The notes under the pieces: generated by a model | What the model was told of the DNA's origin: nothing | The model's database searches: none | What the model saw: only the letters and a program-made list of their open reading frames with translations | NCBI GenBank assembly: GCA_007378985.1 | Contig: VMHB01000003.1 | Coordinates: forward strand, 28,283 to 92,282 | Origin: Parcubacteria group bacterium Greene0714_7 | GTDB lineage: Bacteria; Patescibacteriota; Minisyncoccia; Phycocordibacterales; Phycocordibacteraceae | Length of the DNA: 64,000 nt | Reading direction: 5' to 3' | Position numbers and translations under genes: made by a program | Part shown: positions 8,749-64,000 of the stretch, piece by piece | Layout of the letters: every line of letters starts with the position of its first letter | Numbering within the stretch: the stretch's first letter is position 1

Positions 8749-8839
8749 CTGTGAGGTGAGTGGTATGATTCCCGTGTCCCTTTTTCATATTTATTTAAAA
8801 GCTGGAACCTGGAACCTATAACCTGAAAGCTGATTTATT

Positions 8840-9802
8840 ATGGACAGAAACTTAGCTCTTGAATTCGTGCGAGTAACTGAAGCTGCTGCTGTTGCTTCAG
8901 GACATTGGATTGGTAAGGGCGACAAACTCAAAGCTGATGGTGCAGCAGTTGATGCGATGCGCACTGCATTTAATGAAATTAATTTTACTGGGCGTGTTGT
9001 TATTGGAGAGGGAAGTAAAGACGAAGCCCCAGAGCTGTATACAGGTGAGAAACTAGGTAAAGGAGGGAAGCCAGTCTTGGATATTGCAGTTGATCCGCTT
9101 GAATGCACCGATAGCGTGGCATACGGAAGATACAACGCACTCTCTGTTATTGTGGCTGGCCCCAAAGGCACATTGCTTGGAGCGCCTGACACCTATATGG
9201 AGAAGATTGCGGTAGGACCAAAAGCTCGAAAAGTAATTCGTCTTGACGCCAGTGTGTCGGTGAATATTAAAAAAGTTGCAAAAGCACTTGGTAAAAAGGT
9301 AGGTGATATTACTGTCGTTGTTCTTGATAGGGAGAGGCATACGCAACTTATAAAAGAAATTCGTGCATCTGGTGCCAGGGTTCGTCTTATTACTGATGGT
9401 GATGTTGCGGGTGCCATTGCGCCATCAATGTTTGATTCCGGAATCGACATTCTTATGGGTATTGGCGCTTCTGCTGAGTCAGTACTTGCCGCCGCCGCCG
9501 TTAAAGCACTTGGCGGAGAATTGTTATGTAGATTTAAATCAAAAGATGAACATCAGAGAAATTTAGTTAAAAAAGCAGGTTTGAATGAAAAGAAAATTTA
9601 TAGCACTAACGATTTAGTGAAGAGTGATGATTTCACCTTTACTGCAACAGGTGTCATTGATGGTCCGCTTTTGGATGGCGTTCGCTTCACGAAGAGTAAA
9701 GCGGTTACGCACTCATTAGTCATTCGTGGAAAGTCAGGCACGGTGCGTTACATGACAACGCACCATAGGCGTGACCCACGAGGAGATTTTTATTCATCAT
9801 AA
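8840..9802 (+). CDS. glpX: fructose-1,6-bisphosphatase class II
   Basis: Canonical GlpX N-terminus MDRNLALEFVRVTEAAAVASGHWIGKGDK. Confidence 0.9.
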   Translation: MDRNLALEFVRVTEAAAVASGHWIGKGDKLKADGAAVDAMRTAFNEINFTGRVVIGEGSKDEAPELYTGEKLGKGGKPVLDIAVDPLECTDSVAYGRYNALSVIVAGPKGTLLGAPDTYMEKIAVGPKARKVIRLDASVSVNIKKVAKALGKKVGDITVVVLDRERHTQLIKEIRASGARVRLITDGDVAGAIAPSMFDSGIDILMGIGASAESVLAAAAVKALGGELLCRFKSKDEHQRNLVKKAGLNEKKIYSTNDLVKSDDFTFTATGVIDGPLLDGVRFTKSKAVTHSLVIRGKSGTVRYMTTHHRRDPRGDFYSS

Positions 9803-11954: not shown

Positions 11955-12246
11955 TCCGCGGTAGCTCAATGGTAGAGCAGCTCCCTGTCCAAAGGCAGCC
12001 TTCCCGAGGAATCGGGATTGAAAAACGAGGTGAATTCGGGGAAACCCTAATCCTATAAAAGGATGGGCAATCCCGAGCCAAGCTCTGACGATTTGTTGGA
12101 GAAGGCGTAGAGACTATCCCGAAAGGGAGTAGGCCGAAAGGTCGAAGCGCCTCGCATCCAGATCGGATGATGATATAGTCCACGCCCTTCGTAATAGGGG
12201 ATCACGTGTAAGGAGTTGGTTGTAGGTTCGAGTCCTACCCGCGGAG
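11955..12246 (+). tRNA. tRNA-Asn(GUU) interrupted by a group I intron (intron 11989-12208). Exons are 11955-11988 and 12209-12246, and the spliced anticodon loop is CUGUUAA.
   Basis: 5' exon: acceptor TCCGCGG, D-arm GCTC/AATGGTA/GAGC, anticodon stem GCTCC, loop CTGT, then the intron. 3' exon: TAA, GGAGT, variable loop TGGTT, T-arm GTAGG-TTCGAGT-CCTAC, acceptor CCGCGGA, discriminator G. The intron has a P1 in which exon CUGU pairs with GGCAG (U35.G), GAAA tetraloops (GGGGAAACCC, TCCCGAAAGGGA, GGCCGAAAGGTC), the R element AGAGACTA, the S element GATATAGTCC, and a terminal G. Confidence 0.75.
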
Positions 12247-12254
12247 CTTGATAG

Positions 12255-12285
12255 AAAAAACTCTCCACTTTGGGGAGTTTTTTGT
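12255..12285 (+). terminator. rho-independent terminator after tRNA-Asn (CTCTCC...GGGGAG followed by a T-run)
   Basis: A hairpin with a T7 run and an upstream A-run, so it looks bidirectional. Confidence 0.6.
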
Positions 12286-12323
12286 ATCACTAGCACTGCG
12301 TGTGTATGGACTCGAACCGCGGG

Positions 12324-12377
12324 CCGCAGGGAGCGAAGAGCGACCGTAGGTTTCGAGCATAGCAATGCGAGAGGCGA
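12324..12377 (+). repeat. conserved element X copy A (CCGCAGGGAGCGAAGAGCGACCGTAGGTTTCGAG...GAGAGGCGA), followed by the tRNA-Asn 3'-end fragment GAGTCCTACCCGCGGAGC and a terminator
   Basis: Near-identical 34-nt core plus a similar 22-nt tail at 63026-63081. Both copies are flanked by tRNA-derived fragments. Confidence 0.5.
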
Positions 12378-12574
12378 GTCCTACCCGCGGAGCCGAGAGA
12401 GAAAATGAATCCCGCCTTGTTGGCGGGTTTTTCCTCAAGATGACTGGTCACCATTTCTCGAGAACACTTAGTATTTTACGATGAAGGAGTACAATACTTA
12501 GTGACTCGTGACCGAGTCTACCCGCGGGGCTAGGTGGATTGGTGTAATCAACTTATCTCAGTTAAAAATAATCT

Positions 12575-13579
12575 ATGAATCTTAAATACGAAATAAAGCC
12601 AGAGAACCTAAAGGTTCTTGAAATAAAACAAATAACTTTAAACAAAGATAAGTTTGGAGCGTTGACTTTTGATAAAGCATATCCAAAACTTCACGAGATC
12701 AGGAAGATGTTGGTTGAGTTCGAAGAACTTGGCTATGTTGATTTGCTTACGAGCGATGAAGTTAACGAGGTTAATAGTCTCAAGAGCCAACTACTGCATT
12801 ATGTCCAAAGAGTCAACGACTTGAATCCGGAGACAGATGCCACTTTCAACATAAATGTTAGAGATAGTTTGGAGAATGAGATAGATAACTTCTGCAAGGG
12901 TGCAACTAAACAACTTCGTGCAAACTTAGTTTTCTTAAGACAGGAGGCTGCTCGGAAGAGTACGGATCAACAATCTCTTGCTGAAGAACAAAAAGCTGCG
13001 ACTCAAGCTCGAAAACAGACGGAGGAGACGTTAAATCTACTGCAACAGAAGCTAGAGAAGCTCAACGAACGTGAACAACAGCTTGAAACTACATCAGGCA
13101 AGGTGGGTGCTAAAGCACTTGCAATTCATTTCAATACAGAGACCATTCTATATCAGGGTCGCGCGGACGGATGGTTTAAGGCTGTTGTAATTTCGTATTT
13201 ACTGTTGGTCGTGCTTACTTTAGGAATTGTGGCTTACTACACTTGGTGGCACCAAGGGGGTTGGGCAGCATTAACGTGGCAAGAAGGAACGGCAAAGTTA
13301 GCACTTCTTGCTGTCTCTTGGTACGCAGTCTCTTTCTTCATTCGTAGTTATAACGTTAATTCTCATTTGGCAGCGGTGAACCGTCACCGCACTGCCGTTG
13401 CAGGAACACTTGAAGATTTTCTAGCTTCAAATCCATCAGCTACGGGAGAAATGTTACAAAATGGAACTGATGCCATGTTTAAACACGCAGCAATAGGATT
13501 CATTACTAAGGCGGAAAAAGACTCGGGTAATCCTCTATTGGAGATTGTAAATAAGATCACAAATCCGAAACCCGATTAG
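12575..13579 (+). CDS. hypothetical coiled-coil membrane protein (N-terminal ~190-aa coiled-coil-rich region, two TM helices, C-terminal domain)
   Basis: No recognisable catalytic motif. Lower GC than flanking genes. Located in the tRNA-linked islet. Confidence 0.6.
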   Translation: MNLKYEIKPENLKVLEIKQITLNKDKFGALTFDKAYPKLHEIRKMLVEFEELGYVDLLTSDEVNEVNSLKSQLLHYVQRVNDLNPETDATFNINVRDSLENEIDNFCKGATKQLRANLVFLRQEAARKSTDQQSLAEEQKAATQARKQTEETLNLLQQKLEKLNEREQQLETTSGKVGAKALAIHFNTETILYQGRADGWFKAVVISYLLLVVLTLGIVAYYTWWHQGGWAALTWQEGTAKLALLAVSWYAVSFFIRSYNVNSHLAAVNRHRTAVAGTLEDFLASNPSATGEMLQNGTDAMFKHAAIGFITKAEKDSGNPLLEIVNKITNPKPD

Positions 13580-13672
13580 TGTTCAAACTGACCAACCTCC
13601 ACCCAAAACGTTCCGTCAAAATTTCAAAAAAATCCTTGTGGGGCTTGAAAGTAGAAAGTTCACGACCTGACT

Positions 13673-13810
13673 GGGGAGTCGAGAGAGAAAATGAATCCCG
13701 CCTTGTTGGCGGGTTTTTCATTTTTCTTGAGGCGACTGCGGGAAAGCTTTGCGCAAGAAACAAAGCCTACAAGCGGAGCATGGACCCGAAATCGGGACTG
13801 TCCCCATTTC
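13673..13810 (+). repeat. left copy of a ~130-bp repeat bracketing the R-M module (GGGGAGTCGAGAGAGAAAATGAATCCCGCCTTGTTGGCGGGTTTTT...CAAGCGGAGC...CCCGAAATCGGGACTG), which includes a terminator hairpin
   Basis: Matches 16376-16610 and, in part, 12375-12431. Confidence 0.6.
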
Positions 13811-13932
13811 CATTCTCTCAACCTTTTGAGAGAACAGTATCAACGGAGTTACCGTATTTAGTTTGAAAATCATTTTCCGTTTTCATCTCATCTGTTATCC
13901 ACATTATTGCATAGATAGCACTCTGGGTAAAT

Positions 13933-15129
13933 ATGCTATCATATAGTCACAGTAAGAACATTGATGTGAACAAACAACTTTTAGTACGAAACATCCCAAC
14001 AGAGGTCGGCGACTGGATTGAGCAAGAGCGCAAGCAGCGCAATATGTCGCAACAGGAGTTTGTACTTTCAATGCTCAAAGTCGCATCAGAAGAAAAAGAA
14101 AAAACGCTTCCATTTCATACCGAGCGTCTTTTTCCGAAACCGAACGTTCCAACTACTTTTACATTTATTGACCTCTTTGCTGGGATTGGAGGTTTCAGAA
14201 TAGCTCTTGAAAAACTTGGTGGTGAATGTGTTTATACCTCTGAATGGGATAAGTATTCCCAGAAAACTTACAAGGCGTGGTTTGGAGAGATGCCTGCTGG
14301 TGACATCAGAAAAGTGAAGCCAGCAGACATTCCTAATCACGATGTATTGGCGGCTGGTTTTCCTTGTCAGCCATTTTCGCTCGCTGGAGTTTCAAAGAAA
14401 AAGAGTTTGGGTTTGGAGCACGGTTTCAAAGATAAAAATCAGGGCAATCTTTTCTTCTATCTCGCCACGATTATTCAGGCAAAAAAACCATCAGTACTTT
14501 TCTTGGAGAACGTAAAAAATCTGCAATCACACGATGGAGGTAAAACGTGGGCTGTCATAATGAACACACTGAAAGACCTTGGATATATCACATTTACTCG
14601 TGTATATGATGCAGCGCATTGGGTTCCACAGCATCGTGAGCGCATTTTTATTATCGCTTTCAAGAAGTCAATGTTTGGAGACAATCCTGATTTCACATTC
14701 CCAGAACCACCGCCACTCAAGTCAAAGCTCAAGGAGATTTTGGAGAAAAAGCCTGACACGAAGTACACACTGACAAACCATTTGTGGCAGTATTTGCAAA
14801 ACTATGCCCGGCGTCATCGGGAAAAGGGAAATGGTTTTGGTTTTGGTATTGCTGACCCGAATGGCATTACCAGAACGTTGAGCGCCCGTTATTACAAAGA
14901 TGGTTCTGAAATCCTGATTGAACAGAAGGAGGGCAAGTCACCACGCCGTCTAACACCGCAGGAGTGCGCCAAACTGATGGGTTTTCCAAAAGAGTGCAAA
15001 GTAGTAGTATCTGATACACAAGCGTACAGGCAATTTGGCAATGCGGTGGTCGTGCCAGCAGTTGAGGCAACGGCAGCCCAAATGGTCAAAACTTTCCTTG
15101 CAAAGAAAGCCAAGCGCAAAGCAAAATAA
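13933..15129 (+). CDS. DNA (cytosine-5)-methyltransferase, Dcm/M.EcoRII family, with an N-terminal ~55-aa extension that may be a regulatory HTH
   Basis: Motif I FIDLFAGIGG, motif IV GFPCQPFSLAG, motif VI ENV, motif VIII QHRER and motif X QFGNAV. Long stretches such as TRTLSARYYKDGSEILI and RRLTPQECAKLMGF closely resemble M.EcoRII/Dcm (CCWGG), as recalled from memory. Confidence 0.85.
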   Translation: MLSYSHSKNIDVNKQLLVRNIPTEVGDWIEQERKQRNMSQQEFVLSMLKVASEEKEKTLPFHTERLFPKPNVPTTFTFIDLFAGIGGFRIALEKLGGECVYTSEWDKYSQKTYKAWFGEMPAGDIRKVKPADIPNHDVLAAGFPCQPFSLAGVSKKKSLGLEHGFKDKNQGNLFFYLATIIQAKKPSVLFLENVKNLQSHDGGKTWAVIMNTLKDLGYITFTRVYDAAHWVPQHRERIFIIAFKKSMFGDNPDFTFPEPPPLKSKLKEILEKKPDTKYTLTNHLWQYLQNYARRHREKGNGFGFGIADPNGITRTLSARYYKDGSEILIEQKEGKSPRRLTPQECAKLMGFPKECKVVVSDTQAYRQFGNAVVVPAVEATAAQMVKTFLAKKAKRKAK

Positions 15130-15130
15130 A

Positions 15131-16294
15131 ATGGCATCACCACTTACCGAAAAAGCAATCAGTGAAGCGGTACAGCACGGAAACGCGCTGTTGAAGTTCA
15201 TCTCACCAAACGACACAGGTGCAACGGGAGCGCATCAATCGGGCTTTTACTTGCCTAAATCTGCTTGGGAGATTTTTACTCCTAACGGACCAACAAAAGG
15301 CGAAAACTCCAAGCATCCCGTCAATATTGAATGGCACGATGGTAGAGTCACAGAGTCAGTAGTAACTTGGTACGGTCAAGGTACTCGTTCAGAGTATCGT
15401 CTAACTCGCTTTGGTAAGGATTTTCCATTTCTTATACCTGATACAGTCGGAGACTTGTTGATGCTGGTCCCAACAAGTAGAAACGATTTCAACGCATACG
15501 TTTTTGACCAAGAAGATGACATTGAAGAAGTTATGGCTGCTTTGGGTGTACAGCCATTTGAACATTGGTCTATTTACAAAAACGGTATTGCACAAATTGA
15601 AGATACTGATGCGTGTTTGGAAAAACAATTTCAAGAGTTCGCAAAAGCGCTTGATAAGTTTCCAAAGACCGATGTGTTTTCAAACGCAACACACAAAATG
15701 CTTGAGCACTGTGTTCGTGAACTTGCAAAACAACCTTTTGATACAAAACTAATGGAGTATTACTCAACAGAATACAAACTTTTTCAGGTAGTTGAGAGAC
15801 AAATCTGCCAGACGGAAATCAGCCGACTTTTCAAGGACGTTGATGATTTTCTACACACCGCAGCAAGTATTATGAACCGACGTAAATCACGAGCAGGACA
15901 TTCGCTTGAGAACCACGTTGATAGCATATTTACCGAAGCAAATCTGGCTCACGAAATGCAACCGCGAGTAGATGGCAAACCAGACATTATCTTCCCAAGC
16001 AAAGAAGCATATTTGGACCCTTTATATCCAACAGAGAAACTCATTGTGATGGGAGTAAAAACAACTTGCAAAGATAGATGGCGACAGGTTTTGAATGAAG
16101 GTAAACGAGTCAAAGGAAAGCATATCCTTACCCTCCAACCAAGTATTTCTTCAAATCAACTAACTGAAATGTACGAAGCAGGAGTGACGCTGGTTGTGCC
16201 ACGCAAACTCCAAGCGGATTATCCGAAAGACAGCCCGCTAACCATCCTTACTGTTGAAGATTTCATTGAGCAAGCGAAGAAACTGATTGCTTAA
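15131..16294 (+). CDS. EcoRII-like type IIE restriction endonuclease (N-terminal EcoRII-N/B3-like effector domain plus a putative PD-(D/E)xK C-terminal domain)
   Basis: The N-terminus FISPNDTGATGAHQSGFYLP matches the EcoRII N-domain signature (..SANDTGATGGHQVGLYIP), as recalled from memory. The ATG lies 1 nt after the MTase stop. The C-terminal region GKPDIIFP...IVMGVKTTCK is a candidate catalytic core. The ORF-track start at 15035 overlaps the MTase gene and is probably spurious. Confidence 0.65.
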   Translation: MASPLTEKAISEAVQHGNALLKFISPNDTGATGAHQSGFYLPKSAWEIFTPNGPTKGENSKHPVNIEWHDGRVTESVVTWYGQGTRSEYRLTRFGKDFPFLIPDTVGDLLMLVPTSRNDFNAYVFDQEDDIEEVMAALGVQPFEHWSIYKNGIAQIEDTDACLEKQFQEFAKALDKFPKTDVFSNATHKMLEHCVRELAKQPFDTKLMEYYSTEYKLFQVVERQICQTEISRLFKDVDDFLHTAASIMNRRKSRAGHSLENHVDSIFTEANLAHEMQPRVDGKPDIIFPSKEAYLDPLYPTEKLIVMGVKTTCKDRWRQVLNEGKRVKGKHILTLQPSISSNQLTEMYEAGVTLVVPRKLQADYPKDSPLTILTVEDFIEQAKKLIA

Positions 16295-16350
16295 ACGACG
16301 GCTGACTCGGAAAAGTCAGGGATATAGAAGTAACAGCTTTCATTCATAAA

Positions 16351-16375
16351 GTAGGTTCGAGTCCTACCCGCGGAG
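16351..16375 (+). repeat. 25-bp direct repeat of the tRNA-Asn 3' end (GTAGGTTCGAGTCCTACCCGCGGAG), the att-like right boundary of the islet
   Basis: Identical to 12222-12246. Confidence 0.7.
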
Positions 16376-16610
16376 CCGAGAGAGAAAATGAATCCCGCCT
16401 TGTTGGCGGGTTTTTCTGTGCAACTAACACGGCTTGCAAGCGGAGCATCGCCCTACATAGGGCGTTTTGTATTTTCTTAGACTGCGACCGTGGGGAAGCT
16501 TTTGTGTAGCTCAACAAAAGCTTGCAAGCGGAGCCGAGAAGTTGTCGTAGGGAAGCCATGTGCAACTAACACGGCTTGCAAGCGGAGCTAGGTCCGAAAT
16601 CGTGACTAAT
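16376..16610 (+). repeat. right copy of the ~130-bp repeat plus an array of degenerate CAAGCGGAGC-ending fragments and small hairpins
   Basis: Terminator AAAATGAATCCCGCCTTGTTGGCGGGTTTTT. TGTGCAACTAACACGGCTTGCAAGCGGAGC occurs twice (16418 and 16558). GGTCCGAAATCGTGACT matches 13787. Confidence 0.55.
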
Positions 16611-16647: not shown

Positions 16648-17154
16648 ATGAAAAAAGTAGAGGTAATCTTGGAAAAGCTTATATTCGCAAGCCGTTGGCT
16701 ACAAGCACCACTCTATGTTGGGTTGGTTTTGGGCGGTGTCCTGTATTCATACAAATTTTTCACCGAACTCCTTCACTTATTTATTGAGATAGGTCATATA
16801 TCTGAGTCGGTATTAATGCTCGGCATACTTACCCTTATTGACTTCACTATGGTAGCCAACCTTCTTATTATGGTTATCATCGGTGGTTACTCAACCTTCG
16901 TAAGTCGACTTGAAATTGACACTCATAAAGACAAGCCTGAGTGGTTGTCAAAGGTAGATGCGGGAACGCTTAAAGTTAAATTAGCAGGTGCGCTCGTTGG
17001 CATATCAGGAATCCACTTGTTGCAAATTTTTATAAACATCGAAAATCAAAATCTCAATAATGTGATGTGGCAAGTTATCATTCATGTCGTATTCCTTTTC
17101 TCTTCGATAATGCTTGCTTATTCGGAAAAGATTTTACATAGTAGGCACTCATAA
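16648..17154 (+). CDS. UPF0114/YqhA family membrane protein
   Basis: N-terminus KLIFASRWLQAPLYVGLVLGG is typical of YqhA. Confidence 0.65.
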   Translation: MKKVEVILEKLIFASRWLQAPLYVGLVLGGVLYSYKFFTELLHLFIEIGHISESVLMLGILTLIDFTMVANLLIMVIIGGYSTFVSRLEIDTHKDKPEWLSKVDAGTLKVKLAGALVGISGIHLLQIFINIENQNLNNVMWQVIIHVVFLFSSIMLAYSEKILHSRHS

Positions 17155-17353
17155 AAGGAACTGCTTTGCCAACAGGCTTTAACCTCATCCAGTAAGTGGA
17201 GCCCCGCCTTATTTTGTTCGGATGCTCCGCAGGTAACTAAGGTTGCCTGCGTTCGCATCCTCGGAAATGAATCCCGATACAAGATTGGGATTCATTTCGC
17301 TCGAACGCTCCGCAGGTAGTACAATAAGGCATACTCACTAATAAAAAATACAT

Positions 17354-19213: not shown

Positions 19214-19508
19214 TATATCAGCAAGGATGTACTTCATCGCTTGTGTTACTAATACGGTCTCTAGGTGAAGCGAAATACACCTATTGACATTTCCGTTCAA
19301 TCATGTAACAATAATATTTACGGAAGGAGTGCTAAAAAATGTGGAGGTAGTGAATACTTGTGCATGTGTGAAGCTGGCCTGTGTCCTTTGCGATAAGTTT
19401 TTCTTGAAAAAGAAAAGATCGGAGCGCCTTAACTTAAGAGGTACTTTTTTTCCTAGATGTGAATTCGGGAAAGGTTTCTATAAGTGACGGCGCATGCACA
19501 GGTTGCAT

Positions 19509-20295: not shown

Positions 20296-20727
20296 ATGAA
20301 CAAAGTAAGTGCTAAGTCAGGTAGAAGAGAACTAGAACCTAAGGCACCAGCAGACATTGTAAAAGTTATCAGGACGAGTTCGAAAGTGCAGATGTTGTGG
20401 GGTAGCCTTACGCCAATCGCACGAAGAGATTTTATTAGTTGGATAGAGTCGGCAAAACAAGTTGAGACGCGCAAACGTCGAGCCCTGAGTATTCCCTCAA
20501 GGCTCCTCTCTGGAAAAAGGCGTCCTTGCTGTTATACGCTCGTGCCAATGAATCTCTACAAAGCTCTGGGAGCAAGTCCTAAGGCAAAGGCTACTTGGGG
20601 TAGCCTTACACCTAATGAGCGGAGAGATTTTGTAAGTTGGGTAGAGAAAGCTACAGAATCAGAAGCGCGCGGGCTTCAAATTATGAAAGCCTGCCAGATG
20701 CTTGCGAAAGGGAAGCGACGTCCTTGA
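20296..20727 (+). CDS. tandem YdeI/OmdA-domain protein
   Basis: The OmdA-like motif W-SLTP--RRDF-SW-E-A occurs twice, and the C-terminus is LAKGKRRP. Confidence 0.6.
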   Translation: MNKVSAKSGRRELEPKAPADIVKVIRTSSKVQMLWGSLTPIARRDFISWIESAKQVETRKRRALSIPSRLLSGKRRPCCYTLVPMNLYKALGASPKAKATWGSLTPNERRDFVSWVEKATESEARGLQIMKACQMLAKGKRRP

Positions 20728-52318: not shown

Positions 52319-53916
52319 ATGACTATATTTCGTCGCATTTTTAATCGAAAAAAACGATATCAGGAAATTGAACCTGACGAAATTCTTATTGATGCAGCAA
52401 ACCTGCCTGCGTTCGATACCTCTAGACTTGAAGGAAGAATTGAGAGGCCTGTAGGTACTTCCGTATTCACTGGTTTTTTTTCTATTGTCTTGCTTGTTGG
52501 GGTCATATTTATAGGAGCACTGATTAATTTACAGATTGTCCAATATCAATCTTTATCTGCGCGCGCTGAAGCCAATCGACTTGCACATTCAGTAATTATT
52601 GCTGACCGTGGTCTTATTCTTGATCGTACTGGAGTAGTCTTGGCAGGTAATACAGCAGGAATATCAGAAACACTCGCTTCTTCAACGACAAAAAAAGATG
52701 CGCCTCTCGGCCTTTTTGCAACAAGGAAATATCCTTTTGGTTCTTCTGCGTCAGTGTTGGTGGGGTATGTGTCATATCCAAAAGCGGATCAAAATGGGTA
52801 TTGGTACCAAGATCACACGGCAGGTGTTGTTGGAGTTGAGTCTTTGTATGATGAGGCACTCTCTGGGACGAACGGTCTCAGTATTGCTGAAACAGATGCA
52901 TCGGGAAATGTGGTTTCAGGCAGTATGGTGCGCACCGCAAAGACTGGGAGTGACATTCGTCTTTCCATTGATGCAGGTCTTCAAAAGGCAATGCATGAAG
53001 CCATTGCACATCGGTCTGAGGAGTCAAAATGGCGTGGTGGTTCTGGTGTAATTATGGATGTACAAACAGGGGAGCTCTTAGCGGTAGTGAGTTATCCGTC
53101 GTTTGATCCTGAAGTTATGTCGAGCGGTTCACCTAAAGATGCTGTTGCAAAATTTTATCGACTGGATCAATTTCCATTCCCAATCCGTATGATCCTTCTA
53201 AGCCCTCTGTCTTTAAAGATTGGAAAGCACACGGGTGGGTTGATATTCGCAAGGCGCTCTCAGTGTCGTCTGATGTTTATTTCTACGCGATAGGTGGCGG
53301 GTATCAAGACCAAGTGGGACTTGGTATTGCAACAATTGATAAGTACATGCGTATGTTTGGTTTTGGAAAAGAAACAGGTGTACCAATGTCAGGTGAAGAA
53401 TTTGGTACAGTTCCAGACCCAGAGTGGAAAGCAAACATGTTTGATGGAGAGCGGTGGTTTCTTGGAAACACATACCACACAGCAATTGGGCAGTACGGCT
53501 TCCAGGTAACGGTGATGCAGTTAGTTCGGAGCACTGCAGCGATTGCAAACGATGGAATGTTAATTACACCAGTGATTGAAGCAGGACAAAATGGATTACA
53601 TACAAATGTCGCAGTAAGTTCTAGTAACTTAGAGGTTGTTCGGGAAGGTATGCGACTCGCTGTTACGGAAGGCTTGGCGCAAGCGCTTGCAGTTCCCGGT
53701 GTGCGTGCCGCTGCAAAGACAGGGACTGCAGAAGTTGGCGCGCGTAAAGAATCCATCAACTCACTTGTTGTTGGATTCTTCCCCTATGAGAGTCCTAAGT
53801 ATGCATTTGCGGTGGTGATGGAACGCGCAAAGGCAGGCACACCGCAAGGGGCACCTGCGGTGATGGGAGAAGTGCTTCGTTTTATTGTTAGTGAAAGACC
53901 AGAGATGGTGAAGTAG
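52319..53916 (+). pseudogene. mrdA: penicillin-binding protein 2 (mrdA) split by a frameshift near 53165-53185 into ORFs 52319-53293 and 53263-53916
   Basis: ORF1 carries the N-terminal and dimerisation domains up to ...SYPSFDPEVMSSGSPKDAVAKFY. The other frame continues ...IPNPYDPSKPSVFKDWKAHGWVDIRKALSVSSDVYFY... with SxxK (SVFK), SSD-type and KTGTA motifs. The junction lies in a ttt/ccc-rich stretch. Confidence 0.6.
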
Positions 53917-54033
53917 GTTTCAGGTGCCAGCTTTCAGCTTTCAGGTGACACCTCATCAGATCCACAAGGACTACAGAAAAGGAGAGCAGAGATAGGATTT
54001 TTTCTATCTAAAATATGTTCTAATTCGTGGGCA

Positions 54034-56673: not shown

Positions 56674-56703
56674 AAAATCCCCACCAACGGTGGGGATTTT
56701 TTG
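56674..56703 (+). terminator. rho-independent terminator ATCCCCACC-aacg-GTGGGGAT with a T-run
   Basis: Perfect stem with a T6 run. Confidence 0.8.
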
Positions 56704-56748
56704 TTACCTGAAAGCTGGCACCTGGCACCTAAAACCTAGTTGTTCCAA

Positions 56749-56851: not shown

Positions 56852-57286
56852 ATGCTCATTGGCGAATACCAGCACACGCTTGATCCAAAAAAACGCCTTT
56901 CACTTCCGGCTCGCTTTCGTAAAGAACTTGGTAAGACCGTTATCGTTACTCGAGGACTCGACCACTGTCTTTTTGTTTTCTCAGTAACATCATGGAAAAA
57001 ACTTGCAGAGAAGTTTAGTCAGCTTTCTATAGGCTCATCTGATACACGAGGTTTTAATCGCTTCGTGCTTGCAGGCGCAGTAGAAGCTGATGTTGATTCT
57101 GCAGGACGCATTCTTATTCCTGATTATCTGAAAGATTTTGCAACTCTTAAAACTGATGTCGTACTTGCCGGTGTGAATGACCGAATTGAAGTTTGGGATA
57201 AGAAACGCTGGGCATCCTACAAAGAGCAGATTGAGTCGCAGGGAGACGCGATGGCTGCGAAGCTCGGGGAGATTGGTGTCATATAA
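56852..57286 (+). CDS. mraZ: transcriptional regulator MraZ
   Basis: MLIGEYQHTLDPKKRLSLPARFR... with two DxxxR-containing halves. The ATG at 56852 is preferred over the TTG at 56825 used by the ORF track. Confidence 0.85.
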   Translation: MLIGEYQHTLDPKKRLSLPARFRKELGKTVIVTRGLDHCLFVFSVTSWKKLAEKFSQLSIGSSDTRGFNRFVLAGAVEADVDSAGRILIPDYLKDFATLKTDVVLAGVNDRIEVWDKKRWASYKEQIESQGDAMAAKLGEIGVI

Positions 57287-57331
57287 AAGCTTTCAGGTTA
57301 CAGCTTTCGGCTTCCAGCTTTAAGAAAAAAA

Positions 57332-58637: not shown

Positions 58638-58755
58638 TGTAGTAGCTTCCAGCTTCCAGCTTCCAGCTTCCAGGTGCCAGCTTTTGCATTCAAAGCTGAA
58701 AGCTGACAGCTGAAACCTGACAGCTAATAGTTGCTTCATACGCTAGAATACAAAG

Positions 58756-60495
58756 ATGTCCGCTAAGTCCAACTTCGCTTTTCGTATACGCATTATCGCT
58801 GGTTTTATTCTATTGATTGCGTTAGTGCTTTTGGTACGCTTGTATTTTTTACAAGTGGTTCACGGCAAAGAGTATCGCCTAAAGGCAGAAAGTCAGTATG
58901 TGCAACAAAGCACTAACCAAATTGACCGAGGTACTATCTTTTTCACTTCTCGTGATGGTTCGCTTATTTCGGCGGCAACCATCGCAGCGGGGAACACTAT
59001 TGTTATTAATCCCTCACGGCTTGGAGATCCAGAAAGTGTCTACCCTGCTTTAAAAAAATTATTGCCCGACCTTGATGAATCAGTATTTCTTGAAAAAGCT
59101 CGAAAGAAAGACAGTGTGTATGCTGAAATAGCCAAGCAGGTAACACCAGAGGTTGGGGTTGCTATCTCTGCGTTAAAAATAACGGGAGTGCAGGTACTTG
59201 CTTCACACTGGCGTTTTTACCCTGGGCGTGTTCTTGCCGCGCAATCTATTGGCTTTTTGGGTTTTGGTGCTGATGGTAAAAGTGTTGCGGGGCAATACGG
59301 TTTGGAACGCTATTACAATGGCGCACTGTCCCGCTCAGACGGAGGACTGTATGTAAACTTTTTTGCGGATCTCTTTACAAACATTCGTGCAAAATTTTCT
59401 CCTGACACAGTAGAGCCGGGTGCTGATTTAGTCACCTCAATTGAACCATCAGTACAGCAATTTCTTGAAGATGCTTTGAAAAAATATGATGAGGCGTGGA
59501 ACTCTGACACGGTTGGCGGAATTATTATGGATCCAAAAACTGGTGCCATTATTGCAATGGCATCACGCCCAGGGTTTGATTTGAATGATTTTAAAAATGC
59601 AGACCCAAATGCATTCGCGAACCCCTTGGTTGAGCGTGTGTATGAATTTGGCTCCACTATGAAGCCTATAACCATGGCTGCAGGAATTGATTCAGGTGCG
59701 GTTACTCCTACTACCACTTACAACGACAAGGGGTTCCTCGTCTTGGATGGACTGCGCATTAATAACTACGACCATAAAGCACGTGGAGTAGTGTCTATGC
59801 AGGAGGTGTTGAATCAGTCGCTCAATACTGGTGTTTCATTTGTGGTTGCTAGAATGGGCACTGCAAAATTTGCCGGTTATTTAGAAAAATTTGGCATTGC
59901 GAGCGAAACAGGGATTGACCTTCCTAATGAAGCCTCGCCACTTGTGAGCAACCTTAAAAGTCCTCGTGCCGTTGAATATGCAACTGCCTCGTTCGGGCAG
60001 GGTATTGCAATTTCTCCCATCGCTATGACTCGAGCACTCGCTACGCTTGCAAATGGTGGGGTAGTGCCTGCACCGCATGTTGGTGTTGAGCTTCGCTATG
60101 GTGGAGGTATAACTAAAAAACTCGGATGGAGTCCCCCTATGCAAGCAATAAGTAAAGAGAGTGATGAAGCCATTACACGAATGTTGGTAACGGTAGTAGA
60201 TGACGCTCTTCAGGGTGGAAAAATAAAAATGGCCGACTACAGCATTGCCGCAAAAACGGGAACGGCGCAGGTTGCCCGTCCTGACGCCCGCGGGTACTAC
60301 GCCGACCGCTACCTCCACTCATTTTTTGGCTACTTCCCAGCCTACAATCCAAAGTTTCTCGTCTTCTTTTTTGCGGTGTATCCTAAGGGAGCACAGTACG
60401 CTTCAGAGACGTGGACATTGCCCTTTATGAATACTGTGCATTTTCTTATAAACTATTACGAGATCCCTCCTGACCGTGCACAAACTGGAGGATGA
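58756..60495 (+). CDS. ftsI: peptidoglycan D,D-transpeptidase FtsI (PBP3-type)
   Basis: STMKP (SxxK), SLN(T) and KTGTA motifs, with an N-terminal TM. Confidence 0.85.
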   Translation: MSAKSNFAFRIRIIAGFILLIALVLLVRLYFLQVVHGKEYRLKAESQYVQQSTNQIDRGTIFFTSRDGSLISAATIAAGNTIVINPSRLGDPESVYPALKKLLPDLDESVFLEKARKKDSVYAEIAKQVTPEVGVAISALKITGVQVLASHWRFYPGRVLAAQSIGFLGFGADGKSVAGQYGLERYYNGALSRSDGGLYVNFFADLFTNIRAKFSPDTVEPGADLVTSIEPSVQQFLEDALKKYDEAWNSDTVGGIIMDPKTGAIIAMASRPGFDLNDFKNADPNAFANPLVERVYEFGSTMKPITMAAGIDSGAVTPTTTYNDKGFLVLDGLRINNYDHKARGVVSMQEVLNQSLNTGVSFVVARMGTAKFAGYLEKFGIASETGIDLPNEASPLVSNLKSPRAVEYATASFGQGIAISPIAMTRALATLANGGVVPAPHVGVELRYGGGITKKLGWSPPMQAISKESDEAITRMLVTVVDDALQGGKIKMADYSIAAKTGTAQVARPDARGYYADRYLHSFFGYFPAYNPKFLVFFFAVYPKGAQYASETWTLPFMNTVHFLINYYEIPPDRAQTGG

Positions 60496-62622: not shown

Positions 62623-62687
62623 GAAAAGCTCTTGGATGCTGTATTTTAAGCTGAAAGCTGGCACCTGAAAGCTGTAAGCTAATAAAA

Positions 62688-62759
62688 GGCCCTATCGTCT
62701 AACGGTTAGGACACATCCTTCTCAAGGATGGAATCGGGGTTCGATTCCCCGTGGGGTCA
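62688..62759 (+). tRNA. tRNA-Glu(CUC)
   Basis: Cloverleaf: acceptor GGCCCTA/TGGGGTC, D-arm GTCT-AACGGTTA-GGAC, anticodon stem CATCC/GGATG with loop TTCTCAA, T-arm CGGGG-TTCGATT-CCCCG, discriminator A. CCA is not encoded. Confidence 0.8.
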
Positions 62760-62800
62760 CAAACTAGAAAACAAGCCCTTAGTCAGGCTTTTTTCAGTTT

Positions 62801-62846
62801 GTGACCCCAAGCACGAGAATGGTTTCTCGTGCGACGGGGAATCGAA
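62801..62846 (-). repeat. inverted partial copy of the tRNA-Glu 3' end (TTCGATTCCCCGT...GGGGTCAC), interrupted by a 25-nt perfect hairpin (GCACGAGAA..TTCTCGTGC)
   Basis: It is the reverse complement of tRNA-Glu positions ~54-73 plus the downstream ACAAACT, forming a large palindrome around the tRNA terminator. Confidence 0.6.
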
Positions 62847-63025
62847 GCGCGGAACGATGTTTTTCGTTGCGAAAAACCGTGAGCGGGGCCTGCGACCGAG
62901 CCGAACATGGGTGAGGTGAGAGTTGTAGGCAATTCCCGTGGGGACTGGGAATCGAACTGCGGGCTCCCGATTTCTTAGGTTGTAATCAACCTCTAGAAAT
63001 CGCAGTGCACTAAATTTATTGTTGC

Positions 63026-63081
63026 CCGCAGGGAGCGAAGAGCGACCGTAGGTTTCGAGTCGTAGCAACGACGAGAGGCGA
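63026..63081 (+). repeat. conserved element X copy B
   Basis: CCGCAGGGAGCGAAGAGCGACCGTAGGTTTCGAG is identical to 12324-12357. The tail TCGTAGCAACGACGAGAGGCGA resembles CATAGCAATGCGAGAGGCGA. It is followed by a tRNA-Glu-like fragment, ATTCCCCGTTGTGC. Confidence 0.5.
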
Positions 63082-63171
63082 TTCCCCGTTGTGCTTAAGA
63101 AATGGTGGCTGACCCCCCCATTTCAGCATTTCCCATTGACTCAAACCTATTTCTATTGGATTCTGTAAGTA

Positions 63172-64000
63172 ATGGTTATCATCTCCACCAAAGGAGAATA
63201 TCGAAAGGAAAATACAAGCACTAAAGAAGTCTTTTACTACAGGGATCCAAAAGAGGGAATTGATGTTAAATCACGCGAAGTCTATAAGCGTAAACCTCTA
63301 GAGATTCATTTTCCTTTTGATCGTAAAGGAGGGCAGAAATATAAATTTATCGATAGAGTGGAATTTCATGGAATTTCCCCAACAGCTGTACCTGGGGTTT
63401 TTACTGCCACGAATTTCGGATTAGGTTTTACTAAAAATCTTAGTCCGGCAATCTATCAACTTGATAAAGTGCCTCGAATTACAAAAGTAATTATTTCTCC
63501 TACCGAAAGTTCAAAAATTCAAGGTGATGCAGCAATTTTCAATACAATTGATCTAAATGAAATTTTTAAATGGATTAAACCTCTCAAAGAGTCCCAGTCT
63601 GCAGAACTAAAGAAAACCGCCAACAATTCTTTAGCAAAGATATACCCTTCCAGTTTTACTAAAAACATAGCACGTTACACGAAAGGGGAGTTGAGTCTTT
63701 TCATTAAAAATAAACAAGTTGAGCCCGCTCAGCTGTCTGACGAAGATGTAGGAAATGCCTTGAAGCTGATCCCTGAAAAAGTGAGTGTTGAAAGCATACT
63801 CTACAAAGCAGAGGAAAAAATTAATTTCATTAAACTGAAATCTGTTAGAAAGCGTTTTGAGAAATTAATCAATCAGAAAACGCAATCAAAATCGTTTGAG
63901 GAAAGGTGTCAGAAATTCTTTTCTCAGAATAGTTGGATATTTTCTAATATTCTTTCTGTCCCCGTAGCTTTGTATTTGAAAAAAGCTTACGTGGGAGGAA
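63172..64000 (+). CDS. hypothetical protein, partial (runs off the window end), AT-rich; possible DUF4263/Shedu-like N-terminal region
   Basis: ATG at 63172 with an open frame to 64000 (276+ aa). It is absent from the ORF track because no stop lies within the window. Near the end, ERCQKFFSQNSWIFS resembles the E..Q.F...NPWLFG segment that precedes the nuclease core in DUF4263 proteins; this is a weak pattern match. Confidence 0.5.
   Translation, partial: MVIISTKGEYRKENTSTKEVFYYRDPKEGIDVKSREVYKRKPLEIHFPFDRKGGQKYKFIDRVEFHGISPTAVPGVFTATNFGLGFTKNLSPAIYQLDKVPRITKVIISPTESSKIQGDAAIFNTIDLNEIFKWIKPLKESQSAELKKTANNSLAKIYPSSFTKNIARYTKGELSLFIKNKQVEPAQLSDEDVGNALKLIPEKVSVESILYKAEEKINFIKLKSVRKRFEKLINQKTQSKSFEERCQKFFSQNSWIFSNILSVPVALYLKKAYVGG

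Follow-up and report, generated by a model that had tools for sequence, protein, structure and literature searches.

The genomes of Patescibacteria are tiny and show few recognised mobile elements; the routes by which these bacteria gain defence and accessory genes are poorly understood. Genomic islands which are seeded at tRNA genes and accompanied by displaced tRNA fragments are an established model, described for Islander-type islands (PMC4383910) and for the tycheposons of Prochlorococcus (10.1101/2020.12.28.424599), with the ssrA islands of Dehalococcoides as a further example at a tRNA or transfer-messenger RNA (tmRNA) gene (PMC3146451). The subject here is X, a 34-nt string that lies beside two tRNA genes in a 64-kb stretch of the chromosome of Parcubacteria group bacterium Greene0714_7 (contig VMHB01000003.1, positions 28,283 to 92,282; hereafter the window). 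Like an Islander-type island, the X locus has an intact tRNA gene whose 3' end is directly repeated further downstream, with a separate trailer after each copy, and X itself is the constant core of a non-coding unit of about 105 nt (168 nt in a long variant). X is tentatively read as the core of a non-autonomous recombination (attachment, att) module which targets the tRNA T-loop and seeds or marks tRNA-proximal islands in Patescibacteria, a reading that is favoured and held at a little under even confidence.

Several other kinds of system share features with the X-units. Cis-mobilisable elements (CIMEs) and the derivatives of integrative elements that resemble miniature inverted-repeat transposable elements (MITEs) are non-autonomous, att-flanked, gene-less or gene-poor and found in tandem at the same site; CIMEs are kilobase-sized deletion derivatives of a known integrative and conjugative element (ICE), as in the Streptococcus thermophilus ICESt3/CIME work. 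The attC sites of integrons and the attP(+) hairpin of the CTX phage (XerCD) are folded single-stranded recombination sites, and CTX attP mimics dif. RNAs that are processed like tRNAs or mimic them include the t-elements of plant mitochondria, the tRNA-like domain of tmRNA, YrlA and mascRNA, and the T-loop is a key recognition element for RNase Z, the CCA-adding enzyme and the tRNA elbow.

The X repeat and its two loci

X (CCGCAGGGAGCGAAGAGCGACCGTAGGTTTCGAG) is present in two exact copies on the + strand, at 12324-12357 and 63026-63059, with 0 mismatches. There is no third copy in the window at up to 3 mismatches, covariance model R1 finds no further copies there even with its filters off, and 0 copies arise in 100 shuffles. 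The original prediction, made from the letters of the window, had placed X and a similar tail beside both tRNA loci, and this is borne out, as the alignment extends from the exact repeat through a small hairpin, whose stem differs between the copies in a compensatory manner, into the tail CGAGAGGCGA downstream of it. The host tRNA genes upstream are a tRNA-Asn gene with a group I intron (copy 1) and a tRNA-Glu gene (copy 2). Copy 1 is directly preceded by GGACTCGAACCGCGGG (12308-12323) and copy 2 by GGGAATCGAACTGCGGG (62947-62963), with a 62-nt insert between the latter and X; the T-arm-like reverse-complement piece that had been seen before X thus exists at both loci, with the correction that it does not adjoin X at the tRNA-Glu locus. 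The fragment of the neighbouring tRNA 3' end after X is likewise real, being identical to tRNA-Asn at 19/19 positions in one case (CGAGTCCTACCCGCGGAGC, 12375-12393) and a decayed Glu-like copy in the other (CGATTCCCCGTTGTGC, 63079-63094).

Neither X locus folds into a functional cloverleaf, in agreement with the original prediction: no tRNA match is found on either strand at E <= 10 in 12240-12560 and 62760-63180, ARAGORN reports none there, and no other Rfam family scores even at that threshold apart from noise-level matches of Rfam 15 to terminator-like leaders. The same scan of six related loci (the retrieved loci are given L numbers below) returns tRNAs only. At all these loci X matches no Rfam family, and it is not a fragment of rRNA.

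The tRNA-Asn gene upstream of copy 1 is split by a 220-nt intron inserted between positions 35 and 36, in the anticodon, and its second exon ends at G73-C74. The intron has the RF00028 (group I) core, with a match of 64.6 bits against a gathering score of 50, and the joined exons equal the intron-less tRNA-Asn of the related locus L004. Because the intron splits the gene, ARAGORN misses tRNA-Asn and reports only tRNA-Glu at the two loci. The 35/36 intron site of Patescibacteria tRNA-Asn has already been published (PMC13011429); the introns described there lie in the same phylum and the same gene as the neighbour of X copy 1, and downstream units are not mentioned in that account. The group I intron is an element separate from X, and X-units also lie beside intron-less tRNAs (L004, L013).

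Architecture of the units

The order of the parts is an intact tRNA (ending N73-C74), a trailer, an inverted arm, the scaffold, a hairpin and a direct arm, and the orientation of the unit is always that of its tRNA (Table 1). The first trailer is 18-60 nt long, is unconserved between loci and usually holds a terminator-like hairpin, which is missing between tRNA and unit in L007 and L009. In the window this terminator gives weak terminator-type Rfam matches and is non-homologous to the sequence at the same place in L004, despite the 98% identity of the neighbouring DUF1003 protein and the conservation of the unit itself; the flanking intergenic DNA has been replaced around a conserved X-unit.

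The inverted arm is the reverse complement of tRNA positions 52-74, C74 included, with 23/23 positions recovered in L004 and 21/23 in X-unit 1, where insertions are the only differences and the arm pairs with the direct arm. Across units the differences are mainly small insertions confined to the 5' strand, one of which is always at the junction of acceptor and T-stem. The left T-arm-like piece is consequently not the crossover remnant that it had been taken for, but a full, bulged inverted copy of positions 52-74 which pairs with the right arm. The constant scaffold, TCGAACCGCGGG-CCGCAGGGAGCGAAGAGCGACCGTAGG, holds tandem direct repeats (GAGCGAA GAGCGAC; CCGCGGG CCGCAGG ... CCGTAGG) and leads into a hairpin of the general form GUUUC-GA-G NNNN AGCA NNNN C-GA-GAGGC. 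In cognate units the direct arm always starts at C56 and ends at C74 of the neighbouring tRNA, to which it is identical at 19/19 positions in five of seven units, at 18/19 in one and at 17/19 in one. A second, different trailer with a terminator follows the direct arm in several loci (the tRNA-Asn locus of the window, L004, L008), and 40 nt of the one at 12394-12433 are also found in L004. Of the crossover remnants originally proposed, the right-hand piece behaves like a tRNA 3' end that has been displaced, being an exact direct repeat of C56-C74 with a trailer and terminator of its own for each copy.

The arms follow the local tRNA, whereas the scaffold is common to different tRNAs and distant lineages. 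In the Saccharibacteria-like Asn units the left arm is of the Paceibacterota type (GATACGGACTC / ATATGGACTC versus GTA(T/C)GGACTC) and the right arm matches the local tRNA, which suggests, from sequence comparison, that the left arm and X are borne by a travelling element and that the right arm is derived from the host.

In X-unit 2, the long variant, the inverted T-loop piece is followed by a hairpin insert (62964-63025) between GCGGG and CCGCAG of the scaffold, then by X, a hairpin (63052-63079) and the decayed direct arm. The insert is shared with the unit of L009, which stands beside tRNA-Trp, and the arms of these two long variants are decayed or hybrid. Upstream of X-unit 2 lies a further unit with the same architecture built on a second scaffold, Y. 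It opens with an inverted copy of tRNA-Glu 66-74, which a side hairpin (62810-62834) separates from the inverted T stem and loop; the Y scaffold then leads to a direct arm (62930-62945) that has decayed. Its inverted arm matches tRNA-Glu at 22/23 positions once the side hairpin is removed. Y and X are in tandem at tRNA-Glu, and decay of the direct arm rises with distance from the tRNA.

The design is not confined to X. When the 3' end of each ARAGORN tRNA in the retrieved Patescibacteria loci was looked for downstream by a script, 10 of the 12 tRNAs were found to have a second copy of their own C56-C74 at a distance of 95-165 nt, and scaffolds X, Y, T or U fill the space between, depending on the locus. 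Y recurs in clearly homologous form after tRNA-Gly, T is the sole weak extra match of the X covariance model and, like U, follows tRNA-Tyr. An inverted arm with a junction insertion, a scaffold and a direct arm from C56 are thereby common to three unrelated scaffolds. A hairpin module, CACTTAGTATTTT...AAAATACTTAGTGAC followed by a tRNA-end fragment, is also shared, at 12466-12530 in the window (Asn-like, sense) and on the - strand downstream of the X-unit in L008 (Glu-like, antisense). Whereas tRNA-linked islands with displaced fragments and the tRNA-Asn intron are already well known, the X, Y, T and U units, as conserved, structured and retargetable modules with an inverted tRNA-end arm, are undescribed in the literature found and in Rfam 15.

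Table 1. Features of the two X loci and of related scaffolds (window coordinates unless a retrieved locus is named)
Feature	Position	Strand	Details and basis
tRNA-Asn(GUU) gene	11955-12247	+	exon 1 11955-11988, intron 11989-12208, exon 2 12209-12247
Trailer and intrinsic-terminator-like hairpin (ACTCTCC...GGGGAGT and T run) after tRNA-Asn	12255-12285	+	read from sequence
X-unit 1, inverted arm	12293-12318	+	reverse complement of tRNA-Asn 52-74 with small, bulge-forming insertions
X-unit 1, constant core (TCGAACCGCGGG, X and hairpin)	12312-12374	+	exact repeat, 11-unit alignment
X-unit 1, hairpin GUUUC-GA-G CAU AGCA AUG C-GA-GAGGC	12350-12375	+	
X-unit 1, direct arm	12375-12393	+	exact copy of tRNA-Asn C56-C74, 19/19 identity
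Trailer (CGAGAGAG...) and terminator after displaced tRNA end	12394-12433	+	terminator scan
Inserted island, 3.9 kb (334-aa membrane/coiled-coil open reading frame, Dcm methylase, EcoRII endonuclease)	12434-16357	+	Pfam, PADLOC, repeats
tRNA-Glu(CUC)	62688-62760	+	ARAGORN; Rfam tRNA 58.9 bits
Y-unit (second scaffold family, X-unit-like architecture)	62801-62945	+	sequence, folding z -4.25
X-unit 2 (long variant)	62947-63094	+	RNA fold z-score -3.5; covariance model score 97.6 bits
Shedu-like (SduA/DUF4263) protein gene right after X-unit 2	63172-64000, off window end	+	PADLOC SduA E = 3.3e-19
Y scaffold after tRNA-Glu	62801-62945		
Y scaffold after tRNA-Gly	L012, about 8762-8905		clearly homologous to the window copy
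T scaffold after tRNA-Tyr	L007, 6626-6752		weak match of X covariance model
U scaffold after tRNA-Tyr	L009	-	

Distribution among Patescibacteria

A central 19-mer of X was searched against 185,579 species genomes and a 20-mer against metagenomes; such exact-word searches recover near-identical copies only, and the family may be broader. The 19-mer returns 7 true X loci, its remaining 2 matches being due to chance, and the 20-mer returns 5 loci. After removal of duplicates there are 11 distinct X-units, all of them in Patescibacteria genomes or metagenomes. The constant core is invariant in 11/11 units, over a stretch that extends well beyond the 19-mer search key on both sides. The hosts belong to different classes (Paceibacterota, Saccharibacteria-like and other Patescibacteria) with a patchy distribution. 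All related DNA is from Patescibacteria, as are the closest proteins; among the sources are Pacebacteria/Paceibacterota, Saccharibacteria and metagenome-assembled genomes labelled 'Patescibacteria group'. A core that is near-identical across different classes argues for horizontal spread and not for vertical descent.

The adjacency to tRNA genes that was noticed in the window is upheld beyond it. A cognate tRNA is present in the retrieved locus for 7 of the 11 units (three Asn, one Glu, one Trp, one Arg and one unidentified tRNA-like 3' end in L001), the two long variants are also beside a tRNA, and for two units (L003/L011 and L005/L010) the retrieved locus shows no cognate tRNA. A truncated remnant in L015 consists of the last 11 nt of X and the direct arm only. 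X has no match among the phages of INPHARED or the plasmids of PLSDB, and a search of IMG/VR with five patterns gives only two matches (L019, L020), both chance hits in GC-rich phage coding sequence.

Folding and covariation

In most units the inverted and direct arms are able to pair with each other. The arm stem is paired to 95% in the alignment, with tRNA position 59 covarying with its partner, and the small hairpin is paired in 11/11 units (100%), with three pairs changed on both sides; its tandem GA/GA becomes GC/GC in two Saccharibacteria-like units and one U.G pair becomes C-G once. Over the whole alignment five pairs are changed on both sides, and the covariation score of 0.256, compared with 0.121 in shuffles (0/500 reach it), drops when partners are slid, these figures coming from 11 related sequences with few independent events and an invariant central scaffold, in which a single-stranded DNA hairpin would give the same signal as an RNA. 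X-unit 1 scores 104.7 bits with the covariance model. Two U.G pairs are constant, and the fold is therefore better on the + strand.

Compared with shuffled sequence, the short X-units show no gain in folding stability (z about -1); z is -3.5 for the long X, -4.25 for Y and -5.67 for T. Y and T are predicted to adopt stable, branched, tRNA-like folds with a 7-bp acceptor-like stem. In the X-unit of L008, in Y and in T, the inverted arm is interrupted by a side hairpin (AGCA...TGC) of 16-25 nt, placed precisely where its acceptor and T portions meet.

Comparison with described systems and rival explanations

The case for the favoured reading, in which X is the core of a T-loop-targeting att module, starts from the direct repeat of the tRNA end, the separate trailers and terminators, the decay with distance and the build-up of cargo beside the tRNA, which together argue for site-specific integration at tRNA genes. 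The units share with Islander-type islands the arrays of partial tRNA ends and the variable cargo, here defence genes, beside a tRNA in a streamlined genome, and the regenerated tRNA with a displaced 3' direct repeat is present as the 19-nt C56-C74, exact in 5/7 cognate X-units. They differ in that the segment from tRNA to displaced end is only 95-165 bp long and encodes nothing, so that no integrase lies within it, and in that they also carry the same tRNA end in inverted, bulged form, along with a scaffold that is both conserved and structured. Tycheposon integrases are tRNA-specific, whereas the X scaffold serves many tRNAs. The idea that X is the end of a mobile element therefore survives as far as its tRNA-adjacent and horizontally mobile core is concerned, but no large, integrase-bearing element for X to terminate was found, the tRNA and its duplicated end being only about 130 bp apart. 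As with CIMEs, one X-unit (L011) is directly beside a conjugative module; unlike CIMEs, the X-unit has no known parent element, and the neighbouring conjugative module occurs without X in another genome. MITEs differ as well, since the inverted arms of the X-unit change with the tRNA and there is no short flanking duplication, the only repeat being the 19-nt tRNA end, of which one copy is the tRNA itself.

In form the units resemble attC and CTX attP, with which they share an imperfect inverted-repeat hairpin with extrahelical bases on one strand, compensatory changes, a position between gene cassettes and a folded stem that reproduces the double-stranded target. The X-unit, in contrast to attC, conserves the 'loop' (X) and varies the stem, its target is the tRNA T-loop, the RYYYAAC/GTTRRRY cores are absent from both loci and the window has no intI-like open reading frame (ORF). 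It is proposed that the direct copy would represent the tRNA end of the host, shifted to its present place by a site-specific recombination event that crosses over at T55/C56, and that the inverted arm and scaffold would be the element-borne arm. In a folded single strand (DNA, possibly RNA), pairing of the two arms would create a helix resembling acceptor and T-stem, with X as its cap, and this mimic of a tRNA end would be recognised by a recombinase encoded in trans, in principle as attC or CTX attP are; by analogy with these sites, we infer that the folded single strand is the active form. Quasi-palindrome correction could use the neighbouring direct arm as a template and so renew the inverted arm, and since GGTTCGAnTCC is common to all tRNAs, the same scaffold would be retargetable to any of them.

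A number of observations weigh against this proposal. A free, circular, plasmid or phage form of X is lacking in the phage, plasmid and IMG/VR collections, and close relatives yielded no version of the same tRNA locus that lacks X; searches for an empty site through DUF1003 homologues gave no conserved synteny with tRNA-Asn, and through UPF0114 homologues only L015 was informative. No integrase or transposase is present among window ORFs of at least 150 aa, no integrase among the ORFs scanned beside units in related loci, and no gene is shared next to all units among the neighbours scanned. The classical integrase model fails to explain the inverted arm with its one-sided bulges or the matched arms for five or more tRNAs on one scaffold, and an element of 130-150 bp is too small for a double-stranded circle. 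The stretch between tRNA and unit is not conserved with X, so there is no defined left boundary. An RNA would account at least equally well for the G.U pairs and for a side hairpin placed between acceptor and T-stem, and the covariation comes from only 11 sequences with few independent events.

The rival that draws on these last points, a small structured RNA, was already considered in the original prediction, and it gains from the compensatory changes, the G.U pairs and the tRNA-like branching while still being ranked below the att module; it is a possible explanation, albeit a doubtful one. The unit would here encode, as a gene or as a co-transcribed trailer, a small tRNA-like RNA matched to the tRNA that precedes it, in which the arms may form the acceptor and T-stem helix, the extra 5' hairpin may stand where the D and anticodon arms leave, and X, Y or T may replace the T-loop. 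By analogy with plant-mitochondrial t-elements such an RNA could be excised by RNase P and RNase Z. Possible roles would be the punctuation of transcripts extending into the cargo genes, or the sequestration, as a decoy or sponge, of factors with an affinity for tRNA acceptor ends. With the known tRNA-like RNAs the units share an acceptor-like 7-bp helix on a T-stem-like helix, a 5' strand that is interrupted at the junction and a place beside tRNA genes; they differ in having a scaffold of 60-130 nt instead of the T-loop and in that neither the tRNA nor the tmRNA model of Rfam gives a score. The + strand preference, with its compensatory changes and constant U.G pairs, the restriction of bulges to the 5' strand with an insertion always at the acceptor/T junction, and the side hairpin there in the L008 X-unit, Y and T all speak for an RNA. 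So do the very stable folding of Y, T and the long X, the fixed orientation relative to the tRNA, the lack of an intervening terminator in L007 and L009 and the presence of a unit at nearly every tRNA in the retrieved loci. However, a strong terminator-like hairpin with a T run precedes the unit in most loci and the scan found no promoter-like site for the units, the short X-units fold like shuffled sequence, and a stem requires pairing but not 19/19 identity to the tRNA with boundaries fixed at C56 and C74. The patchy occurrence of a near-identical scaffold across classes points to horizontal spread and not to a housekeeping RNA, the tandem direct repeats of X look, from their sequence, more like protein-binding sites on DNA, and no Rfam family matches. 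Two narrower RNA candidates were rejected: a minus-strand, permuted or split tRNA or a tmRNA has no support from covariance models or ARAGORN, and a known ribozyme or guide RNA has neither an Rfam match nor partner genes.

It is improbable that the units are inert scars of repeated island integration, inversion and deletion at the quasi-palindromic T-loop (TTCGAA), with X a functionless, recently spread piece of the arm of one integrase-carrying element. Such a history would fit the many decayed tRNA-Asn ends on both strands between cassettes, the tandem of Y and X at tRNA-Glu with direct arms more decayed farther from the tRNA, the truncated X of L015 and the tRNA-Asn-like T-stem pieces contained in both X and Y (GTAGGTTTCGAG and GTTGTAGG). 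Decay would be expected of scars, yet the X core is invariant in 11 units of different classes while the flanking DNA has been replaced, hairpin pairing is maintained through compensatory changes and an identical, ordered architecture is found in three unrelated scaffolds. Still harder to sustain, and very unlikely, is a guide-RNA-type module akin to the bridge or seek RNA of IS110/IS1111 or the omega RNA of TnpB/IscB, whose arms would programme an enzyme to the tRNA gene. The combination of a constant scaffold with variable segments that match both strands of the neighbouring tRNA, retargeted to several tRNAs, is what such a module would look like, but no IS110-type, TnpB or IscB gene is beside any unit, and no known guide scaffold matches in Rfam. 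Moreover, both arms correspond to one and the same stretch of the tRNA and are base-paired together, instead of lying unpaired in an internal loop for adjacent half-sites.

Genomic context of the units

The window is bacterial chromosome with housekeeping genes for GlpX, a class I aldolase, pyruvate kinase, the lysyl- and a ProRS-type aminoacyl-tRNA synthetase, a Mur ligase, penicillin-binding proteins (PBPs), MreBC and ribosome recycling factor, among others; with this gene content a phage origin was rejected. The units stand at the tRNA-proximal edge of variable, defence-rich DNA. At the tRNA-Asn locus a perfect direct repeat of 59 bp flanks the EcoRII island (12375-12433 = 16358-16416); its first part is the direct arm of the unit, and the CGAGAGAG trailer and terminator make up the rest. 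A third, diverged copy (13661-13719, 86%) ends in a different tRNA-like 3' end and cuts the island in two. The syntenic relative L004 is without the 3.9-kb island and has kept the X-unit. Decayed fragments of the tRNA-Asn end lie between the cassettes on the + strand at 12509-12530, 13661-13679, 13750-13779, 16417-16588 and 19242-19271 and on the - strand at 17240-17330. In other loci the X-unit is beside a NYN/HEC-09 gene and a KAP/PifA-like NTPase gene (L008) or a GNAT acetyltransferase gene (L009).

Small hairpin units were also observed at 13722-13779, 16417-16446, 16476-16534, 16535-16588, 19242-19271 and, on the - strand, 17240-17330, as well as in L004 and L015. Each closes with a tRNA-Asn 3' end in decayed form, either ...GC(T/C)T(G/A)CAAGCGGAGC or ...TACCTGCGGAGC, and together they separate ORF334, the EcoRII restriction-modification genes, UPF0114 and a Na+/H+ exchanger gene in a layout that resembles a cassette array. 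The UPF0114/TIGR00645 gene (16648-17154), just past the island, has many protein matches at 74-79% identity. The few named homologues are from Bacteroidia or Saprospiraceae, and only one close homologue is in a Patescibacteria context; with Bacteroidia-like homologues, the gene was probably acquired horizontally and recently.

In L011 and L003 a conjugative module with a Replic_Relax gene and two ATPases like type IV coupling proteins (T4CPs) is situated between the expected position of tRNA-Asn and the terminator and X-unit, and L013 and L014 are the same locus as L011 without the module; L011, L013 and L014 stem from Hainich groundwater samples. This conjugative or mobilisable module (L011 143-7718, equal to L003) encodes, beside Replic_Relax and the TraG/TrwB-like ATPases, an S49 peptidase and an ArdC-N-like protein. 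Its homologues (L021-L026) are 57-93% identical, the named ones coming from several Patescibacteria lineages, and at its junction in L011 GTTCGAG is fused to unrelated sequence. X as the att arm of the Replic_Relax/T4CP module was ruled out because the modules of L021-L026 end in unrelated sequence, with neither X nor a cognate tRNA.

Further observations concern the rest of the window. Phased repeats of 7 nt (AGCTGAA / ACCTGAC / AGCTGGC ...) occur at 8791-8835, 53923-53953, 56697-56741, 57275-57319, 58638-58729 and 62640-62684, just upstream of several genes and of tRNA-Glu; they are conserved upstream of tRNA-Glu in the relative L008 and may be a promoter-region or DNA-curvature motif. A cyanobacterial source, which these heptamers had brought to mind, was rejected, since every X match and the close protein homologues belong to Patescibacteria. 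One PBP is split into two overlapping ORFs (52319-53293 and 53263-53916; PBP_dimer and transpeptidase domain), which may reflect a frameshift, a pseudogene or a sequencing error, and a second, intact PBP gene is at 58756-60495. A 75-nt direct repeat (20398-20472 and 20596-20670; 72% identity, 198-nt spacing) precedes the pyruvate kinase gene.

Implications

Automatic annotation is confused at these loci because the tRNA-Asn gene is hidden by its intron and the units themselves contain tRNA fragments. The units would supply a searchable marker, consisting of the covariance model and the rule of a C56-C74 duplicate, and would mark tRNA-proximal 'landing pads' of the variable islands of Patescibacteria. 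If the folded, tRNA-mimicking form is active, they would reveal a new strategy by which a selfish element reaches the universally conserved T-loop and leaves the tRNA intact; if the units are RNAs, they would constitute a new tRNA-like RNA family that is paired one-to-one with tRNA genes. There is a modest chance that Patescibacteria carry a new class of tRNA-end-mimicking hairpin modules, comprising X, Y, T and U, which would be either cognate tRNA-like RNAs or retargetable attachment sites. If they were attachment sites, the inverted arm would pick the target tRNA by complementarity, and a trans-acting enzyme would build integron-like arrays of defence cassettes at tRNA genes.

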